From a phage: DNA of 64,000 bases. A program made the position numbers and the translations under genes. Location: sequence record PQ478073.1; one strand, given 5' to 3'. Below the pieces are notes generated by a model that saw nothing but the letters and a program-made list of their open reading frames with translations, did no database searches and was not told the DNA's origin. This document shows, piece by piece, positions 1,794 to 50,387 of the stretch (positions within the stretch are counted from its first letter, which is position 1; every line of letters begins with the position of its first letter).

Positions 1794-2245
1794 ATGTTGA
1801 CGAAATAAAAAATCATTTTGAAATTGCAATGTCATGTGAATTTGACACACAACGTGTTCATGACCCGAAAGAACATATACGAATTTGTTGTGAATTGTCA
1901 GATGATTGTAATATTTTTATTGGAAAAACCTATGACATGATCGATCTTTCATGTATAGATCCATTGGAAAGAAAAACAAAATATTTATATCTGTACAACA
2001 CAACATCAGATACGATTGCAATACAACTAATATCAACCACAACATCCCAAAGTTATTATAACATAACTGAGGTTAGTAGTTTAACGTTAACCGAAGAAGG
2101 ATTCTTTCAACAATCGCTTATTCGTGAAATTGGTGTTAGTTATGATGAGTTAAATGTATTAATAGATTGTTTCGAAAAATTGAGTACTTTTGTATTATCC
2201 CTTTTTAATATACAGTCGCAAAATCCAATGGTGGTGAAATGCTAA
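1790..2245 (+). CDS. hypothetical protein, FFQ-motif family
   Basis: start moved to ATG overlapping upstream stop (ATGA); C-term TEEGFFQQSLIREIG. Confidence 0.55.
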   Translation: MNVDEIKNHFEIAMSCEFDTQRVHDPKEHIRICCELSDDCNIFIGKTYDMIDLSCIDPLERKTKYLYLYNTTSDTIAIQLISTTTSQSYYNITEVSSLTLTEEGFFQQSLIREIGVSYDELNVLIDCFEKLSTFVLSLFNIQSQNPMVVKC

Positions 2246-24155: not shown

Positions 24156-25310
24156 TTATGCGTTGTAACCAACTATTACGACTGAGCAGTCAAGCGGTTC
24201 TACTACTTTAAGAATTACATTATCATCTTCATCCACTTGTATTTCACTATGAACTACATGATTGTCTGAAGAATATAATTGAACTTGTGGTAGTGCTTTA
24301 CCATGTTCAGTTACTGGAACTGAGATAGAGTACATAGAGTCTTCACCGAGAACCCACTCACTTAAAGTATATTCTTTATGGAAAGGAGTAGTATGCAGTG
24401 TTTTTCCGATTATACTCAAAGAAACAGGTAAATTATCAGTTTGATACACAGTAATATTACCTTCTGCGTCTACAGAAAGATCTACACCAACTTGATATAA
24501 GTCACCACTGTATGCTTGAAGTGCTAAGTACTGTCCACGATCATGAACATCAAATGGAACAACCGCAGAAAATACACCTTCCGAAACAGGTTCAAATTGG
24601 GATAGAAGAACTGATGTAACAAAATCAATATCCTCACCACTTTCAAGAACATCAAATTCCACCACTTTAGTGTTATAATATGGAGAAGTGAGTGTAGCAG
24701 TACCTTTCCCTGATTGTGTGATAACATCAACTGGAATTGTAAATGCATCATTAACAAATTGGGTAGTAAAGTATTCTGTCCCGTCTGGTAATACGATTGT
24801 TATTACCATACCGTTAGTATCAATTTCTGAACCAGTGTTGAATAATTTACCACTAATTGAGTCATTACCAACAAATACTGGTGAAATGAGAATATTATCT
24901 ATATCACGATCTATAATACCACATTCAGGTGTATACATATGATACAAGGTTTGTGAACTACCTAAAATTGTTTTATGTAGCATAAATTTATATACAAATC
25001 CAGTATCAGTTTCTTGTGGCTCTTCAGAATATCCACGAACAAAGAAACAATTTTTATTAATTTCACTTAATAGTTGGTCATTAGTTTTATTGTAATTTAA
25101 TAGATAACCTTTATTATCTTTAGTTGTTATTTGTACTTTACGATATATTATATTAGTTCTTGGATCAACTAAATCATATAATCTATGGCTTCTTTGGCGA
25201 TAGATTCTAATATTTTTTAGTCTAGTTCCATCATTGAGGATTGCACCATCAACAACATAACCACATTCACCAAACTTATAGCGTCCAGCCGCAGCAATTG
25301 ACCTTGACAT
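24156..25310 (-). CDS. hypothetical beta-rich protein (possible structural or adhesin-like)
   Basis: 384-aa ORF on - strand with SD GGAGGG and TATAAT upstream. Confidence 0.65.
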   Translation of the reverse strand: MSRSIAAAGRYKFGECGYVVDGAILNDGTRLKNIRIYRQRSHRLYDLVDPRTNIIYRKVQITTKDNKGYLLNYNKTNDQLLSEINKNCFFVRGYSEEPQETDTGFVYKFMLHKTILGSSQTLYHMYTPECGIIDRDIDNILISPVFVGNDSISGKLFNTGSEIDTNGMVITIVLPDGTEYFTTQFVNDAFTIPVDVITQSGKGTATLTSPYYNTKVVEFDVLESGEDIDFVTSVLLSQFEPVSEGVFSAVVPFDVHDRGQYLALQAYSGDLYQVGVDLSVDAEGNITVYQTDNLPVSLSIIGKTLHTTPFHKEYTLSEWVLGEDSMYSISVPVTEHGKALPQVQLYSSDNHVVHSEIQVDEDDNVILKVVEPLDCSVVIVGYNA

Positions 25311-41480: not shown

Positions 41481-41924
41481 ATGAGTTGGGTAAATGTTAA
41501 TAGTATTGAACTTAACGAACAAGATATTTTTGCATTTGTAAATTTAACTAATAACACAGTACTAAAAGGGCGTTTGTTCAGTGCTAGTGATGGGTACAAA
41601 TGGATCTCTTTGATGGATGATAGTGGTGTGATTTATAATGTAATGCAATTACCCCAATGGGTATATAGTAACACTGCTGACGATGTTCTTACCGCAGTTA
41701 TGCGTGAGTTTGAAAAACTCCCAGGTGGTGATATCAAAAACAAAGTTTTTAATGCAGAACGTAAAAATTATACAGCACAGCAGTTGGAATCCCTTGCCAT
41801 TGCTGCTTATCAAGCTGCTATTAAGAAGCCAGAGTGCGTTATTCTTAAGTATGTACCAGACTTAAAACTTACGTTGGAAGACATGGATGCATTCATTTTT
41901 ACATCTGAACTTGATCAGTACTAA
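41481..41924 (+). CDS. hypothetical protein
   Basis: start moved to ATG 41481 (MSWVNV). Confidence 0.5.
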   Translation: MSWVNVNSIELNEQDIFAFVNLTNNTVLKGRLFSASDGYKWISLMDDSGVIYNVMQLPQWVYSNTADDVLTAVMREFEKLPGGDIKNKVFNAERKNYTAQQLESLAIAAYQAAIKKPECVILKYVPDLKLTLEDMDAFIFTSELDQY

Positions 41925-42039
41925 TTTAACTTTGGGACAACCATTCTTATTATGATATAATGTTTTATGTCATTCGATATAAATGACAACGGAACTATAA
42001 ATATTATAGTAAAATTTATCTCTTATAGGAGTTATAAAA

Positions 42040-42423
42040 ATGGTTGATAAATGGAATAAGAAAGATCCATCACATGATGTTGATATTTCTGGTCTAGACA
42101 ATGCACATAAGCACAAGTATCTAGATTCACTAGGTCTTCTAAAACCAGACCAAAGTCTTGCACATGATCGTCCATCCCGTGAAAAAGCATTTAGCCTAGA
42201 ATCACTAGGTCATGAGCTTAATCGTGTGTTTGAGGATCACCCAATCTATGTACGTGATATTATCGAGAAACTTAAAGTAACTCCTAAAGAGCACTTTAAA
42301 GCAACTGTACACTCTGCATTCCGTGCATTACATGAATCTCTAAAGAAAACTCACAATCTTCGTAAAATTCATGATGAAATCGTGAATGCAATCGAAAGTG
42401 AAAAACATAAGTTCAAGAAGTAA
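42040..42423 (+). CDS. hypothetical protein (shares LDSLGLL module with 42694 gene)
   Basis: ORF 127 aa; SD TAGGAG. Confidence 0.55.
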   Translation: MVDKWNKKDPSHDVDISGLDNAHKHKYLDSLGLLKPDQSLAHDRPSREKAFSLESLGHELNRVFEDHPIYVRDIIEKLKVTPKEHFKATVHSAFRALHESLKKTHNLRKIHDEIVNAIESEKHKFKK

Positions 42424-42430
42424 TAAAAAG

Positions 42431-42463
42431 GGGTTGACTAAGGTCAGCCCTTTGTTGTATCAT
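42431..42463 (+). promoter_or_regulatory. bifunctional terminator/promoter cassette (GGGTTGAC-TAAG-GTCAGCCC; TTGACT-N18-TATCAT)
   Basis: perfect 8-bp stem + T-rich tail; -35 inside stem. Confidence 0.6.
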
Positions 42464-42492
42464 AACTTCTCAATATAACTGAGGTATCATAT

Positions 42493-42606
42493 ATGCAAGG
42501 TTTGAAATTTGTAGTTGCTGCACTCATCGCCGCAGTACTGGTTGGTGGTGTATTCTATGTAGTGGATCAAAAAGTAAATCCACCTGCACAAGAACAATCT
42601 AAGTAA
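42493..42606 (+). CDS. small membrane peptide (37 aa)
   Basis: ATG with SD TGAGGT; single TM helix; bracketed by two cassettes. Confidence 0.45.
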   Translation: MQGLKFVVAALIAAVLVGGVFYVVDQKVNPPAQEQSK

Positions 42607-42613
42607 CAAAATA

Positions 42614-42645
42614 AGGTTGACTTCGGTCAGCCTTTTCTTTATACT
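42614..42645 (+). promoter_or_regulatory. bifunctional terminator/promoter cassette (AGGTTGAC-TTCG-GTCAGCCT; TTGACT-N17-TATACT)
   Basis: UUCG hairpin + T-run; -35 inside stem. Confidence 0.6.
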
Positions 42646-42693
42646 ATAAATATAGTCATAGAGAAAAAAATGAAATCTATGGAGAGAAATCAA

Positions 42694-44223
42694 ATGCCAA
42701 GTAATTTTACTGATAAAAATGGTGGTAACATGGCTGGTCACTCTGATAAATGGAGTGAACGCAACCGCCGTCCAAATAGTTATCAAGCAGGTCAAGGTTC
42801 ACGTGGGTCACGTAATCAAGGAACTGGTCTAGCTGGTAAAGCAAACGCAGAAGCAGGTGAAGTTAAGAGTACTGAGAACATGACTGAGCTAGAAAAGCTA
42901 CGTTATGTTAATTCATTGGGACTTCTTAATGCTACACAAAAACAACGTCTAGCTGATATGGAACGTGAAGAAAAAGAAAAGTCTGCTCCTGCGAAAGAAG
43001 AACCAAAACAAGAAGCACCAAAGGCGGTTAACCCTGTCAAAGAACTGTCTGATAAGTTAGGTAAGATTTTTGCTAATAAACCACAACTTATCCAAGGTAT
43101 TGTGAAAGAATTGCAATCTGTACCTAAAGAAGAATTAAAAGTCAAAGCACAAGCTGTACTTGATGCAATGAGTGGAAATACCAGTACTGAACCAACTGAA
43201 GTATTCAGTACTATAATGCGTGCACTTGAAGGTACGCAACAAGGTGATGTGCCTGCACAAGAGGAAGTAAGTCTTGAAAGCGTACTTAAAACATTTGATA
43301 GTATTGGTAAAGAAGACCGTGCTAATGCTCAACAAGTTAAGAATGTACTAGCTAAGTTAGAAAACCGTCTGGAAGGCAAAGACGATAAGATTAAATTAGT
43401 ATCTGATGCAGTTAACGATGCACTTAAATCTTATGTACAAGGTGAAAAGAGTCGTTTTGTAACTGCAATGGATGCTGCATTCAATACTATGAAAAAGTAT
43501 GAAGCTGATCATGGTGAGAAGGTTACACGAGATGGTTATCTGATGCGTGATGATGAAGAAGGTGCAGTTGACCAGAAAGATGCTGAAACATCTCATGATG
43601 ATTTACCTGATACTGTTGATATGGATGGTTACATTCATCGTCCAGAAATGGGAGAGTTTGGTTCTGACAAAGAAGGATTTGAACATGCAATGGCAGTGTA
43701 CAAAGCTCTCGTGGACAATCCAGATTATGCCAACCGATTTGTAGATGAGTTTGATAGTGCATGGAACAACTACAAAGACAAAGGTTATGACTTCCCTGCT
43801 GAGGCAGCATTCTTTGAACTTGGTAAACTATTAGCTAAACATGGAATTGATGTAGGTTCTAAAGATGGTACTGATACTGATGGCATGGAAGCAGAATTGG
43901 CTAAAGATCGTGAAATGAACGACAACTCCATTCATGAACTCCAAAAGCTAATGATGTGGATATCCGATATTGGTAAAAAAGCTGGTGCTGATAATAAGAG
44001 TATCAACAAAAACATTAGTTGGATTAAAAGTAATGTTGGTAAAAATGCTCGTAAACTACAAAAAGCATGGACTGATTTAGTAAATGGTGCTGATGATGTT
44101 GACATTGAATCACCTGAAGCATACGAATATGCATTAACTACTCTTGATAATTCCTTTAAAGATTACGATAACGGTAACGTAACTCCTTGGGAAAAGGACA
44201 TCATGAGCAAATACGGTAAATGA
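42694..44223 (+). CDS. large acidic hypothetical protein (K/E/A/D-rich)
   Basis: ORF to 44223; start placed at ATG 42694 with SD GGAGAG (track start 42670). Confidence 0.6.
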   Translation: MPSNFTDKNGGNMAGHSDKWSERNRRPNSYQAGQGSRGSRNQGTGLAGKANAEAGEVKSTENMTELEKLRYVNSLGLLNATQKQRLADMEREEKEKSAPAKEEPKQEAPKAVNPVKELSDKLGKIFANKPQLIQGIVKELQSVPKEELKVKAQAVLDAMSGNTSTEPTEVFSTIMRALEGTQQGDVPAQEEVSLESVLKTFDSIGKEDRANAQQVKNVLAKLENRLEGKDDKIKLVSDAVNDALKSYVQGEKSRFVTAMDAAFNTMKKYEADHGEKVTRDGYLMRDDEEGAVDQKDAETSHDDLPDTVDMDGYIHRPEMGEFGSDKEGFEHAMAVYKALVDNPDYANRFVDEFDSAWNNYKDKGYDFPAEAAFFELGKLLAKHGIDVGSKDGTDTDGMEAELAKDREMNDNSIHELQKLMMWISDIGKKAGADNKSINKNISWIKSNVGKNARKLQKAWTDLVNGADDVDIESPEAYEYALTTLDNSFKDYDNGNVTPWEKDIMSKYGK

Positions 44224-44232
44224 TAAAACAAA

Positions 44233-44265
44233 AGGTTGACTTCGGTCAGCCTTTTTTTGTAAATA
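44233..44265 (+). promoter_or_regulatory. bifunctional terminator/promoter cassette (weak -10 TAAATA)
   Basis: AGGTTGAC-TTCG-GTCAGCCT + T7. Confidence 0.55.
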
Positions 44266-44294
44266 CAAAAGAGGAATTAAGAAGAGGGATTACA

Positions 44295-44546
44295 ATGAAA
44301 AAATATATTATATTTGGAATTGTATTATTTTCCAGTACTGCTTATGGTGCAGATTATCATTGCTCCGTAGCAAGGCAGGATTTCAGAAATGGGGAGTTCT
44401 ATACTACCTCATACACAAAAGGAATAATACACGACACCGACAGAACTATTGGATTTAATGCGTTTGACAACAAAGATTCATATACTTCAGGTATACTATC
44501 TGAGCGTAAGACTGATGTAATGGGAATAGAAAAAGAGTTCCGGTGA
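44295..44546 (+). CDS. small secreted protein
   Basis: start moved to ATG 44295; signal peptide ending AYG-ADY; SD AGAGGGA. Confidence 0.5.
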   Translation: MKKYIIFGIVLFSSTAYGADYHCSVARQDFRNGEFYTTSYTKGIIHDTDRTIGFNAFDNKDSYTSGILSERKTDVMGIEKEFR

Positions 44547-44556
44547 TTCAGTAGCA

Positions 44557-44880
44557 ATGTGCAATGACATTGAAAGTACCAAAACAATTTATTATAATAA
44601 TGAACGTAACTATCGTTTTCATAATTTAACCACAAATAAAAGTTTACTATTTTACAATTGTAAAGAAGTAATACTCCCATCAGACAATAGCTGTACTCCA
44701 ACTAATCAACCCTCAGCACAATGTAATACTCCCTCTGAACCTGATAAAAATAAAAAAGACAAAGATAAAGATAAAAAAGAAGACAAAAAACCTTTAAAAG
44801 ATAAAAAGAAAGATAAAAAACCTAATCCGTTTAAAAATAATAAACCAGCACAACCCGATATGACGTGTAAAATAAAATAA
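44557..44880 (+). CDS. hypothetical protein with K/D-rich low-complexity tail
   Basis: ORF 107 aa; KKDKDKDKKEDKK repeat. Confidence 0.45.
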   Translation: MCNDIESTKTIYYNNERNYRFHNLTTNKSLLFYNCKEVILPSDNSCTPTNQPSAQCNTPSEPDKNKKDKDKDKKEDKKPLKDKKKDKKPNPFKNNKPAQPDMTCKIK

Positions 44881-45315: not shown

Positions 45316-45348
45316 GGGTTGACTTCGGTCAGCCTTTTTTGTTATGAT
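45316..45348 (+). promoter_or_regulatory. bifunctional terminator/promoter cassette (TTGACT-N18-TATGAT)
   Basis: GGTTGAC-TTCG-GTCAGCC + T6. Confidence 0.6.
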
Positions 45349-45376
45349 GTTGATATTAACTACAGAGGATAAAGTA

Positions 45377-46018
45377 ATGACTAAGCAAGAAATATTCAAA
45401 ACTTTAATTGACATTTTGCGTCCATCAAAAACTCGTTGTGCGATGGAGTTTGATATTCCTTATGCTGAACGCGTAATCTTTCCACAAGTTAAAGCTGCTG
45501 GACTTACTTTGCTTGGAATGGGGATGTACTCTGTAGTAGTTGAACATAAAAACTATCCTGGGCGTGCATTTAAAGTAACCACTTCACGCTGGGATGGTTT
45601 TCGTGCTTATGCAAAGTACTGCATTGAAAACGCAGGAACCAAGTTTCTTCCAGTGATCTACAGTGCCAACGAACAAGGAAACTTTGGATGGTATGAGATG
45701 GACAAGTACTATCCTATAATTAAACAAAAAAATAATTATGATGACTTTGTTAGTACTAAAATTGGAGATTTGTATTCGTATGCACATGCTGGTCAGTACG
45801 CAACTTCAGTGAATGATATGCGTGGAAATTCTGAAGAGATTGCTATTGCAACGGTCGCTGCTAACATCATGAAAGAGTTTCACGGGCGTTTTGTACCAGA
45901 CATTCATTCAAGTAATGTGATGATGGATAAAGATGGGAATGTATTCATTACTGATCCTCTTTCGTGTGATGTGCGTAGAGAAATACCAATTACTGAAGAA
46001 GATCCAGTTTTTTATTGA
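45377..46018 (+). CDS. putative atypical protein kinase / phosphotransferase-like protein
   Basis: start ATG 45377 (SD AGAGGA); G-rich loop GMGMYSVV, AFKV lysine strand, catalytic-loop-like HSSNVMMDKDGNVFITDP. Confidence 0.45.
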   Translation: MTKQEIFKTLIDILRPSKTRCAMEFDIPYAERVIFPQVKAAGLTLLGMGMYSVVVEHKNYPGRAFKVTTSRWDGFRAYAKYCIENAGTKFLPVIYSANEQGNFGWYEMDKYYPIIKQKNNYDDFVSTKIGDLYSYAHAGQYATSVNDMRGNSEEIAIATVAANIMKEFHGRFVPDIHSSNVMMDKDGNVFITDPLSCDVRREIPITEEDPVFY

Positions 46019-46363: not shown

Positions 46364-46702
46364 ATGGAACAATATTTTGAATTAATAAACAAAGTATCAT
46401 TTTATGTAGTATCTTTGGTTTGGGTGTATTATATGTTTTGCTACATTATTGCATTCTTCCGATACACTACTTTATATGAACGTATCTACTATGATGCCCC
46501 AATTTCATTCTTGATGTTTTGTGCATGTACGTGGGGAATATTAGAAGTACTGATATGTGGGTATAGTACTGATGAATTAAATCTGGTATCGGTCTTGACT
46601 GGGTTTTCATTTGTTGTTATGATAGCTGCCGTTCCAGTATGGTTGTTCTTTGGACTAGTTCATCGCATTGATATATGGCGTTCTAATATCCCTGAAAAGT
46701 AA
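46364..46702 (+). CDS. small membrane protein, tandem family A (1 of 3)
   Basis: 3 TM helices; C-term WRSNIPEK. Confidence 0.55.
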   Translation: MEQYFELINKVSFYVVSLVWVYYMFCYIIAFFRYTTLYERIYYDAPISFLMFCACTWGILEVLICGYSTDELNLVSVLTGFSFVVMIAAVPVWLFFGLVHRIDIWRSNIPEK

Positions 46703-46705
46703 GGA

Positions 46706-47053
46706 TTGGTAATGATTTATTACACTAACATGTTTGCCTATGCTGTTGCTTGCATTTACATTGTTTACTTCTTATTCGGTGGAGTACTGTGCTTCTTTAA
46801 GTACAAAACGTTGTTCAACCGAATGTACCCAAATCATCCAATTGTAGTTGTACTTTTGATTCTTTCAGTTTCTCAAATAATCGTTGAAACTACAATGGGT
46901 ATCAGTAGTGTACATTATAGTTTTGGCACTATAGTAATTATTACTATGCTTATTGCATACATTTTAGTACTTGGATATGGTATCTTTGGTAATATTGGTA
47001 TGAAAATGTATCATCGAATTAAAACATTACGTGATAATCTACCGGAGCGTTGA
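46706..47053 (+). CDS. small membrane protein, tandem family A (2 of 3)
   Basis: C-term LRDNLPER. Confidence 0.55.
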   Translation: MVMIYYTNMFAYAVACIYIVYFLFGGVLCFFKYKTLFNRMYPNHPIVVVLLILSVSQIIVETTMGISSVHYSFGTIVIITMLIAYILVLGYGIFGNIGMKMYHRIKTLRDNLPER

Positions 47054-49871: not shown

Positions 49872-50387
49872 ATGACACGCATTAACTTAGTACACGTTAA
49901 AGAACTTGCTGACCAACATCTGATGGCTGAATATCGTGAACTCCCACGTGTATTTGGTTCTGTACAAAAACACGTTCAAGCACGTAAGCGTGTACGTGAT
50001 TTCAAAATTAACAGTACTTACCTGTTGGGTTCAGGTCATGTAACATTCTTCTACAACAAGTTATTGTACTTACAGAAGCGTCATATTGATATTGTTAACG
50101 AATGTTTGCGTCGTGGTATGAAGATTCAAAACACTGAAGTAAACGACATTAGCGGATTCCCTGCTGAGTTTTGTAATGACTACGTACCATCGGAGTCAGA
50201 GATTAAAATGTCTCGTGATCGTTTGATTGAGAAGCTCCAGATGAAGCCTACGTGGTATAAGTTTACTGATGTTGAATGTCCACAGTACGTTAAAGATATG
50301 CAGAACGTAAGTAGTAAGAACGAATCTAGTACTGATATGTTCGACGAAATTGAAGAACAAATCAAAGATGAAATGAATAATTATTAA
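49872..50387 (+). CDS. denV: endonuclease V (pyrimidine dimer DNA glycosylase/AP lyase) with C-terminal acidic extension
   Basis: 171 aa; N-term MTRINL[23 protein letters not shown] ... KRVRDFKI ... [10 protein letters not shown] ... PTWYK matches T4 DenV from memory. Confidence 0.9.

Follow-up and report, generated by a model that had tools for sequence, protein, structure and literature searches.

ORFs A and B of the phage DNA examined here belong, as true paralogues, to one lineage-specific family, and in related phages their counterparts are already annotated as virion structural proteins. By sequence identity or orthology to proteins detected by mass spectrometry (MS) in particles of those relatives, A and B count as virion structural proteins themselves. 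The features discussed are collected in Table 1, with positions counted in the whole 64,000-nucleotide stretch of record PQ478073.1 that was analysed (the window). The phage is an Asteriusvirus, a Rak2-like jumbo coliphage with 99.8% identity to SHEFM2K, and not T4. Taken together, A and B are probably late-expressed, non-enzymatic, alpha-helical virion proteins of a small Rak2-like family.

Table 1. Features of the locus carrying ORFs A and B.
Feature	Position	Strand	Description
Sigma-70-like promoter candidate upstream of A	41932..41961	+	TTGGGA-18-TATAAT with TG; 10/12 in consensus scan
TATAAATA before A	41996..42003	+	T4-type late-promoter motif, 37 nt before ATG
ORF A	42040..42423	+	127 aa, 14.8 kDa, pI 9.05; short paralogue
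Hairpin T1 after A	42428..42453	+	Predicted intrinsic terminator, -17 kcal/mol, z = -4.81
Small ORF S	42493..42606	+	37 aa, one hydrophobic helix; between A and B
Hairpin T2 before B	42613..42634	+	Predicted terminator, UUCG loop, -12.4 kcal/mol, z = -4.88
TATAAATA before B	42645..42652	+	Late-promoter motif, 42 nt before ATG; overlaps -10-like TATACT by 1 base
ORF B	42694..44223	+	509 aa + stop, pI 4.95; long paralogue
B residues 1-60	42694..42873	+	Basic N-terminal segment, rich in Gly/Ser/Asn/Gln/Arg
B residues 61-180	42874..43233	+	Module common with A: EKLRYVNSLGLL helix, variable K/E/P/A linker, helical bundle NPVKELSDKLGKIF...STIMRALEG
B residues 181-509 + stop	43234..44223	+	Acidic C-terminal extension, all-helical (AF2, charge profile)
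Hairpin T3 after B	44230..44255	+	Predicted terminator, common GGTTGACTTCGGTCAGCC stem, -14.3 kcal/mol, z = -4.66

Both ORFs lie where a preliminary description of this DNA had placed them, and the four peptides that it quoted are all present in the translations. The length of 510 residues given there for B is the number of codons including the stop; the protein has 509. B is highly charged and acidic as described, D, E, K and R making up 32% of its residues. Some gene callers start B at 42670, which gives 517 aa. The start at 42694 is preferred because M1 and P2 are invariant in the family and the ribosome-binding site is better (GGAG, 9 nt upstream). ORF S corresponds to gp200 of 121Q, matches PHROG 35037 (E = 2.2e-29) and is annotated in 121Q, SHEFM2K, phAPEC6 and JP4; it is absent from all virion proteome lists. 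The gene order A, small ORF, B is common to the relatives 121Q, phAPEC6 and JP4. The surroundings of A and B are a region of small, early-type genes.

The proposal that A and B are a paralogous pair sharing a module is borne out by BLASTP, which aligns them over 119 aa with 24% identity (E = 6e-8). The similarity includes the stretches originally quoted and is wider than these, covering nearly the whole of A including the N-terminal DKW. PHROG 16530 matches both A (E = 3.6e-56) and residues 1-180 of B (E = 5.5e-38), and PHROG 20398 matches B (E = 3e-218); both families carry the label 'virion structural protein'. A hidden Markov model (HMM) built from B-type proteins alone (alignment A2) picks ORF A, with E = 5.4e-9, out of the ORFs in all six frames of the window. 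HMM searches of the whole window and the whole phAPEC6 genome identified no third paralogue. In the 16-sequence alignment A1, the columns invariant in A- and B-types are W5, K24, Y27, L31, G32, L60, F64, P68, I74, L78, E84 and A117 (A numbering), of which W5 and E84 are only nearly invariant in the 38-sequence alignment A3. The shared module consists of a KxxY..LGLL helix, a linker and a four-helix bundle.

The family is confined to one phage lineage. Among 1.84 billion representative proteins 37 matches were found, all from Rak2-like phages, and the short members are basic, with pI 8.7-9.6. No Pfam match of A, B or ORF S rose above noise, and in sequence searches of the PDB neither the single proteins nor the B-family profile produced a match with E below 0.1. 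Foldseek against BFVD returned matches to the same family only. The predicted structures of A and B are all-helical, with no enzyme fold and no informative fold. No description of the paralogy, the domain layout or the promoters of A and B was found in the literature on these phages.

In A, a helix at residues 21-30 (KYLDSLGLL) is followed by a disordered linker and the four-helix bundle at residues 53-126. Except for DKW, A lacks the basic N-terminal segment of B. That segment is predicted to be disordered (pLDDT 40-52), yet it is strongly conserved across the family, with the consensus MPxxFxxKNGG..GHSDKWS..NRR..GSRGSRNQGTG..GKAN. The C-terminal extension of B adds about 330 aa. A is 100% identical to phAPEC6 gp037c, 121Q gp199 and JP4_541. 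B is about 84% identical to its orthologues in 121Q (gp201) and phAPEC6 (gp035c), and 44% identical to RaK2 gp275 over the first 267 aa.

The suggestion that these proteins are packaged in the virion was right, since MS had already found the products in particles of related phages: both proteins in phAPEC6 and JP4, and B in RaK2. By virion ESI-MS/MS of phAPEC6, gp037c, identical to A, was detected with 5 peptides and 48% coverage, and the B orthologue gp035c with 8 peptides. The JP4 virion yielded 4 peptides of JP4_541, again identical to A, and 2 of the B orthologue JP4_543. In RaK2 virions gp275, the B orthologue, gave 20 unique peptides, a number exceeded only by the tail sheath. The MS abundances of the JP4 orthologues were 5e6 and 1.6e6, against 1.4e8 for JP4_352. 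Such values are far under those of the abundant virion proteins, so JP4_541 and JP4_543 are not major particle components in JP4; the main text on JP4 gives no gel-band assignment for either protein.

The sequences in front of the two genes suggest when they are expressed. TATAAATA occurs three times in the window on both strands, against 13.5 copies expected, and the two copies on the + strand are those before A and B. Both are also present in phAPEC6 and 121Q. The third copy (1982..1989, minus strand) was rejected as a promoter and is taken as a chance copy, because it runs antisense to a + strand ORF that contains it and no gene follows it. The whole phAPEC6 genome has 15 copies where about 68 are expected. 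In eleven cases the distance to the following start codon is 24-64 nt, and a twelfth copy precedes gp347 by 195 nt. Carriers of the motif make up 7 of the 62 MS-detected virion genes of phAPEC6, the genes of the major head protein and the scaffold among these seven, and 4 of the 481 others (Fisher p = 4e-5). About 32 nt before RaK2 gp275 stands AATAAATA. In CBB the homologue is preceded by a sigma-70 promoter of consensus type, and its upstream sequence comes near to the late motif without matching it in full.

These sites resemble the late promoters of T4 in the identical TATAAATA octamer, its genome-wide depletion, its spacing from head and morphogenesis starts and the presence of a gp55-like sigma gene. 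In phAPEC6 the product gp237c, whose gene is outside the 64-kb window, is annotated as 'sigma factor for late transcription'. CBB likewise encodes a gp55-like sigma, and for CBB and GAP32 the sequence ATAAATA has been reported in front of structural genes (PMC5259590). A difference from T4 is that no gp33 or gp45 homologues were found in CBB (PMC5259590). We infer that the motifs before A and B are T4-type late promoters read by the gp55-like sigma. Read in this way, they imply that A and B would be made together with the head and tail proteins. The literature yielded no Asteriusvirus transcriptome and no mapped transcription starts.

Each of the two genes had been described as flanked by terminator/promoter cassettes. 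Hairpins do follow A, precede B and follow B; upstream of A a folding scan identified no terminator hairpin, and only promoter-like motifs are found. T1, T2 and T3 have stable G+C-rich stems, are each followed by a T-run and are oriented with the genes, as expected of strong intrinsic terminators. A and B each have a TATAAATA motif and an intrinsic terminator to themselves. T1 embeds TTGACT (42434..42439), with TATCAT (42458..42463) 18 nt later, and T2 embeds TTGACT (42617..42622), with TATACT (42640..42645) 17 nt later. The T3 hairpin is also the one that follows RaK2 gp275. T1, T2 and T3 belong to a repeated hairpin family that is present 8 times on the + strand of the window, where 0.06 copies would be expected. 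A genome has no more than 8 exact copies, of which 7 fall in a single 14-kb region, and in phAPEC6 seven of eight have a -10-like hexamer 17-18 nt after TTGACT. The sigma-70 candidate upstream of A is weak evidence, since such matches are no commoner than in shuffled sequence. A and B may be transcribed early as well, because a sigma-70-like promoter is found in front of each.

The composite elements are reminiscent of the PeSL cassettes of T4-type phages, in which a repeated conserved stem-loop terminator and a sigma-70-type promoter lie between small genes (PMC2839356, PMC4122927). PeSL cassettes sit at the boundaries of indels or replacements between close relatives; here one hairpin copy, T3, borders on a recombined segment, at its right edge only. 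The present elements differ in their small number of exact copies, in that the -35 hexamer TTGACT falls within the hairpin itself, in its 5' arm and loop, with the T-run as spacer, and in that the copy before B is fused with the late-promoter motif.

From comparison of the genomes, gene B is a recombination mosaic among Asteriusviruses under purifying selection. The C-terminal two-thirds form an allele of its own in this phage, 80-90% identical to 121Q at the DNA level, and phAPEC6 and JP4 are without a segment of 276 nt that the gene has here. The right edge of the divergence island coincides with T3. Its left edges, at about 42,900 and 43,550, are inside the gene and not at a cassette. In the divergent segments dN/dS is 0.10-0.18.

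A history that would account for this layout starts from a basic protein of about 160-180 aa, whose N-terminus is conserved, disordered and rich in Gly, Ser and Arg and is followed by an amphipathic helix (K-x-x-Y..LGLL), a variable linker and a bundle of four helices. The gene would have been duplicated in the Asteriusviruses. A would have kept the helix and bundle and lost the Gly/Ser/Arg-rich segment, while B would have kept all parts and gained the 330-aa acidic helical extension, which recombination passes from phage to phage. The shared module, we infer, may be the part through which both proteins dock into the particle during assembly.

The most likely place of A and B, given here as a tentative assignment, is the head interior with the DNA, as a component of the core or inner-body type. 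The basic character of the short family members and the Arg/Gly/Ser-rich N-terminus are consistent with an internal location, as are the position of the genes outside the tail and baseplate clusters and the inner body seen by bubblegram in phAPEC6. If A and B are internal to the head, the C-terminal part of B would be variable cargo. A fuller version, in which the family is inner-body or head-core material of Rak2-like jumbo phages, the module is a lineage-specific head-targeting device and the recombining acidic C-terminus of B is swappable cargo delivered to the host together with the DNA, is rather unlikely. The inner-body proteins of phiKZ offer a parallel: phAPEC6 is likewise a jumbo phage in which bubblegrams show an inner body, and A and B are a paralogous virion pair with a common N-terminal module and a differing C-terminal part. 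The phiKZ proteins belong to paralogous families processed by the prohead protease, and A and B differ from them in having no Pfam match (E <= 1) to the phiKZ internal-head-protein families. The phAPEC6 authors found no phiKZ inner-body homologues among the phAPEC6 proteins.

Virion proteomics is blind to position within the particle, and A and B might instead be external or tail-associated, decorating the capsid, anchoring the hair fibres of capsid or tail, or serving as tail accessories, with the variable part of B turned outward to the environment or host surface. The capsid of phAPEC6 carries unassigned decoration and fibre-anchoring densities and unusual hair fibres, and localised allelic replacement of the kind found in gene B is typical for surface-exposed host-interaction proteins. 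However, every B allele is under purifying and not diversifying selection, and the models consist of short-helix bundles and disordered linkers, with no beta-rich, Ig-like, trimeric coiled-coil or fibre-type domains. The genes are distant from the head, tail and baseplate clusters, and gp210, gp211, gp306c and gp347, small proteins with far higher coverage by MS, would suit a decoration role better. An external position is on these grounds somewhat unlikely.

That A and B are non-structural, being abundant late or DNA-associated proteins that co-purify with the particle, for instance with an SMC or 'chromosome segregation' type of function, is very unlikely. Jumbo-phage virion proteomes do hold unexpected proteins (ssDNA-binding protein, RecA-like protein, thymidylate synthase), and gp035c is annotated as a chromosome segregation protein in the phAPEC6 record. 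The 'chromosome segregation / SMC / SbcC' label was rejected as an artefact of low-complexity helical sequence. Detection in three independent proteomes from two genera argues against co-purification, as does the rank of the RaK2 orthologue of B, second in unique-peptide count.

The preliminary description had reasoned from T4, where highly charged proteins encoded near denV include the packaged internal proteins, and this reasoning found no support. It would make A and B homologues or mechanistic copies of IPI, IPII and IPIII, targeted to the core, trimmed by a gp21-type protease and injected with the DNA. There are likenesses: small charged virion proteins encoded off the main head and morphogenesis clusters, a T4-type (gp21-type) prohead protease (gp227c), TATAAATA late promoters, denV in the wider neighbourhood, and the allelic variability of B. 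The ip loci of T4 are likewise polymorphic. However, denV at 49872..50387 is 5.6 kb downstream and about 14 ORFs from A and B, near only in a loose sense, whereas denV of T4 abuts ipII and ipIII. Against the three T4 sequences the best pairwise BLASTP match has E = 0.33 and below 17 bits, profile scores are at most 1.5 bits, and there is no Pfam match to any internal-protein family. The N-termini, MVDKWNKKD in A and MPSNFTDKNG in B, lack the capsid-targeting sequence MKT(Y/F)(Q/K)EF...E.

Nor is any acidic cleavage motif for a prohead protease conserved between A-type and B-type sequences. NPVKE-LSD, invariant in the B-types, is not a credible cleavage site because the A-types have no aligned acidic residue and it lies within bundle helix 1. 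The T4 cleavage rule (L/I-x-E) can not be calibrated in this phage, since the major capsid protein is apparently unprocessed (42 kDa both predicted and observed). A head-internal place and injection, established for the T4 proteins, are for A and B only proposed. Homology to the T4 internal proteins is contradicted by the sequence and profile comparisons, and a copy of their mechanism is extremely improbable.

The main result is the re-finding of two annotated virion structural proteins. Added to it are the paralogy of A and B with their domain layout, and perfect late-promoter motifs for both genes inside an otherwise early-type region. The composite hairpin/promoter elements extend the PeSL idea past T4-type phages. 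If the family is inner-body material with a head-targeting module and swappable cargo, it would be a functional analogue of the T4 internal and phiKZ inner-body proteins built on an unrelated fold. The finding on A and B matters mainly because they are reasonable, directly testable candidates for the unassigned inner-body components of phAPEC6.

The two open reading frames are as given in the preliminary description, and every peptide quoted there is present in their translations. ORF A is the short paralogue and ORF B the long one (see table). BLASTP aligns them over 119 residues with E = 6e-8. Both match PHROG 16530, A with 3.6e-56 and B through residues 1–180 with 5.5e-38. Searched against every six-frame ORF of the window, a profile made solely from B-type proteins recovered ORF A (E = 5.4e-9); it found no further paralogue there or in the whole phAPEC6 genome. 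By each of these independent measures the paralogy is significant. The two proteins differ in charge, with pI of 9.05 for A and 4.95 for B, in which D, E, K and R make up 32% of the residues.

Features of the A/B region and of other parts of the window
Feature	Position	Strand	Description
Lone minus-strand gene	24156..25310	-	384 aa; matches phAPEC6 gp077 (virion protein, 10 peptides) by position, strand and length; no Pfam match
AATAAATA	25348		about 38 nt upstream of the lone minus-strand gene
GGTTGACNNNNGTCAGCC + T-run hairpins	39189, 42432, 42615, 44234, 45317, 49812, 51094, 52815	+	one ~14-kb region
ORF A	42040..42423	+	127 aa
Small ORF	42493..42606	+	37 aa, single hydrophobic helix, between A and B; PHROG 35037
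ORF B	42694..44223	+	509 aa, acidic C-terminal extension
Called ORF directly 3' of B	44220..44546	+	overlaps the terminator hairpin after B; true start probably ATG 44296, from which it begins MKKYIIFGIVLFSSTAYG..., signal peptide-like; the 121Q annotation is this shorter form
Terminator hairpin T3, after B	44230..44255	+	
107-aa ORF	44557..44880	+	low-complexity Lys/Asp-rich C-terminal tail (KNKKDKDKDKKEDKKPLKDKKKDKKPNP)
Annotated kinase ORF	45344..46018	+	T7 gp0.7-like protein kinase per 121Q and phAPEC6 annotation; Pfam scan, no match at E <= 0.001
Adjacent ORFs	46364..47053	+	112 and 115 aa, resembling tandem paralogous membrane proteins; PHROG 19285 for both in the SHEFM2K record
denV	49872..50387		PF03013
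Paralogous array	57178..63888	-	at least 5 genes, about 360-400 aa each; RCC1-like domain in at least one (E = 1.2e-15, under the Pfam threshold); their syntenic counterparts are phAPEC6 'DNA condensation' proteins found in virions

Both proteins belong to the virion. By position and sequence, A and B correspond to phAPEC6 gp037c (100% identity to A) and gp035c. ESI-MS/MS of phAPEC6 virions identified gp037c (14.83 kDa) with 5 peptides and 48% coverage, and gp035c (46.39 kDa) with 8 peptides and 28.8% coverage (PMC7247149). LC-MS/MS of phage JP4 detected JP4_541, the printed sequence of which is ORF A, with 4 peptides, and the B orthologue JP4_543 with 2 (PMC12648861 supplement); their abundances were modest. 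In RaK2 virions the B-type orthologue gp275 yielded 20 unique peptides, ranking second behind the tail sheath with 21 and ahead of the major capsid protein with 10 (PMC3622015 Table S3). Family members are annotated "virion structural protein" in the 121Q, PBECO4, SHEFM2K and JP4 records, and in the RefSeq records of RaK2, CBB, GAP32, Serratia BF and fHe-Yen9-04. Since these exact proteins are so annotated and detected by mass spectrometry, their being virion proteins is already known.

The earlier suggestion of virion-packaged effectors thus holds in part: the proteins are in virions, a role as effectors is hypothetical, and the likening to the T4 internal proteins does not hold. In a comparison of IPI, IPII and IPIII, taken from NC_000866, with A and B as well as the family profiles, no match rose above chance level (lowest E = 0.33 against the three sequences; profile scores of at most 1.5 bits). 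Neither N-terminus resembles the capsid-targeting motif MKT(Y/F)(Q/K)EF, and no acidic prohead-protease cleavage motif is common to A-type and B-type proteins. There is in any case no ground for assuming the T4 cleavage rule, as the major capsid protein, predicted at 42.2 kDa, is seen at 42 kDa in JP4. A denV gene is present, but at a downstream distance of 5.6 kb, or about 14 ORFs, whereas in T4 it adjoins ipII and ipIII. By DNA comparison, nt 41900..44300 share 99.8% identity with Escherichia phage SHEFM2K, 99.0% with slurp01 and about 90% with 121Q and PBECO4. All four are Asteriusviruses of roughly 350 kb in the Rak2-like jumbo-phage group. On this identity the source phage is assigned to the Rak2-like Asteriusviruses, not to the T4 type, which removes the premise of the T4-based inference.

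The family is small. Among 1.84 billion representative proteins, searched by profile, only 37 relatives were found. By tblastn they occur in Rak2-like phages of Escherichia, Klebsiella, Salmonella, Cronobacter, Pectobacterium, Serratia, Yersinia and Erwinia, with one lone match in a Xanthomonas phage. The most frequent form in the family is basic (pI mostly 8.7–9.6), 156–186 residues long and built of four parts. The N-terminus, MPxxFxxKNGGxxxGHSDKWSDKNRRxNSxxAGQGSRGSRNQGTGxxGKANT, is strikingly conserved, yet predicted to be disordered. Next come the amphipathic helix EKLKYFNSLGLL, a linker that is variable and rich in Pro, Glu and Lys, and a helical bundle of ~75 residues. B is this canonical protein with a C-terminal extension of ~330 residues. 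A likewise has the canonical form but lacks its Gly/Ser/Arg-rich segment; only DKW and PSHDVD are left. This paralogy and domain layout are new from our analysis. AlphaFold2 models, all-helical for both proteins, are consistent with the layout. The A model has a helix at 21–30 and a four-helix bundle at 53–126 (bundle pLDDT about 85). The B model has 22 helices, no strands of at least 3 residues and a pTM of 0.29; disorder is predicted at roughly residues 1–60 (pLDDT <50 at 10–16, 18–20 and 32–57), 98–110, 180–190 and 287–300. Pfam and PDB sequence searches gave no informative similarity, and BFVD matches were the family itself only.

The T4 late-promoter consensus, the octamer TATAAATA, is found 3 times in the window, where 13.5 copies would be expected. 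Its two plus-strand copies precede the ATG codons of A and B by 37 and 42 nt, respectively; the third is antisense within an ORF, with no downstream gene. The phAPEC6 genome was reconstructed (352,598 bp) and contains 15 copies where a first-order Markov model predicts about 68, a four- to five-fold genome-wide depletion. Eleven of the 15 lie 24–64 nt before a start codon, a twelfth 195 nt upstream of gp347, and three within ORFs. Seven are located before virion genes verified by MS, namely A, B, gp158c, gp225c (major head protein), gp226c (scaffold), gp238 and gp323c. Another four stand before plausibly late genes: endonuclease VII, a baseplate-cluster ORF, a portal-adjacent ORF and the GroES operon. 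The preference for virion over other genes gives p = 4e-5 (Fisher's exact test). phAPEC6 gp237c is annotated "sigma factor for late transcription", and AATAAATA precedes RaK2 gp275 by about 32 nt. For CBB and GAP32, ATAAATA has been described ahead of structural genes, and CBB also has a gp55-like sigma (PMC5259590). From these observations, and on motif statistics rather than transcript mapping, we infer that the motifs before A and B are late promoters, an assignment added by the present analysis. The lone minus-strand gene is predicted to be a third late-type virion gene within this early-type region.

Three strong U-run hairpins lie after A (-17 kcal/mol), before B (-12.4) and after B (-14.3), with z about -4.8. 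Upstream of A there is none, that stretch carrying a sigma-70-like match and the late motif alone, so the statement that cassettes flank each gene was slightly overstated. All three hairpins are copies of a repeated element, GGTTGACNNNNGTCAGCC, of which the window has 8 on the plus strand where 0.06 would be expected. Its stem carries TTGACT, followed 17–18 nt on by a -10-like hexamer; before B, this hexamer, TATACT, shares one base with the late motif. phAPEC6 also has 8 copies, 7 of them in 18.7–32.2 kb, all co-oriented with genes and 7 with a -10-like hexamer at the same spacing. An identical hairpin follows gp275 of RaK2, another genus. The hairpins are compact composite terminator/promoter cassettes of the PeSL kind described in T4-type phages (PMC4122927), here with the -35 box embedded in the hairpin. 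The small ORF is bracketed by two of the terminator hairpins and has a sigma-70-like promoter to itself. 121Q and phAPEC6 encode the identical protein, with one synonymous change in 121Q, and it has no entry in the virion proteome lists.

Gene B varies within almost invariant DNA. A, the small ORF and codons 1–60 of B are identical or nearly so in DNA sequence in the window, 121Q and phAPEC6. Identity to 121Q is 80–90% from about 42,900 to about 44,300 (dS 0.6–0.7, dN/dS 0.10–0.15). phAPEC6 remains at least 99% identical as far as about 43,550 and diverges to about 44,200, including a 276-nt deletion (codons 401–509: dS 0.79, dN/dS 0.18). Near-identity is regained in both comparisons just past the terminator hairpin after B, which marks the right edge of the island, and the flanking DNA is 99–100% identical. 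Local divergence at differing breakpoints with low dN/dS thus marks gene B as a recombination mosaic of functional alleles, which is also an addition of this analysis.

A and B would each be transcribed late from their own gp55-type promoter, and each transcript would end at the hairpin of its gene. Docking of both proteins into the assembling particle may be the task of their common helix-plus-bundle module, with the acidic extension of B as the variable functional part. A head-internal, DNA-associated location is the favoured candidate, though a tentative and somewhat doubtful one. It is suggested by the conserved basic Arg/Gly/Ser-rich N-terminus and basic canonical members, by the lack of fibre or decoration folds, by genes lying outside the tail clusters, and by the phAPEC6 inner body, whose protein components are without assignment. 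The surviving TATAAATA copies in phAPEC6, mostly before head and morphogenesis genes, provide a usable map of putative late promoters for Asteriusviruses.
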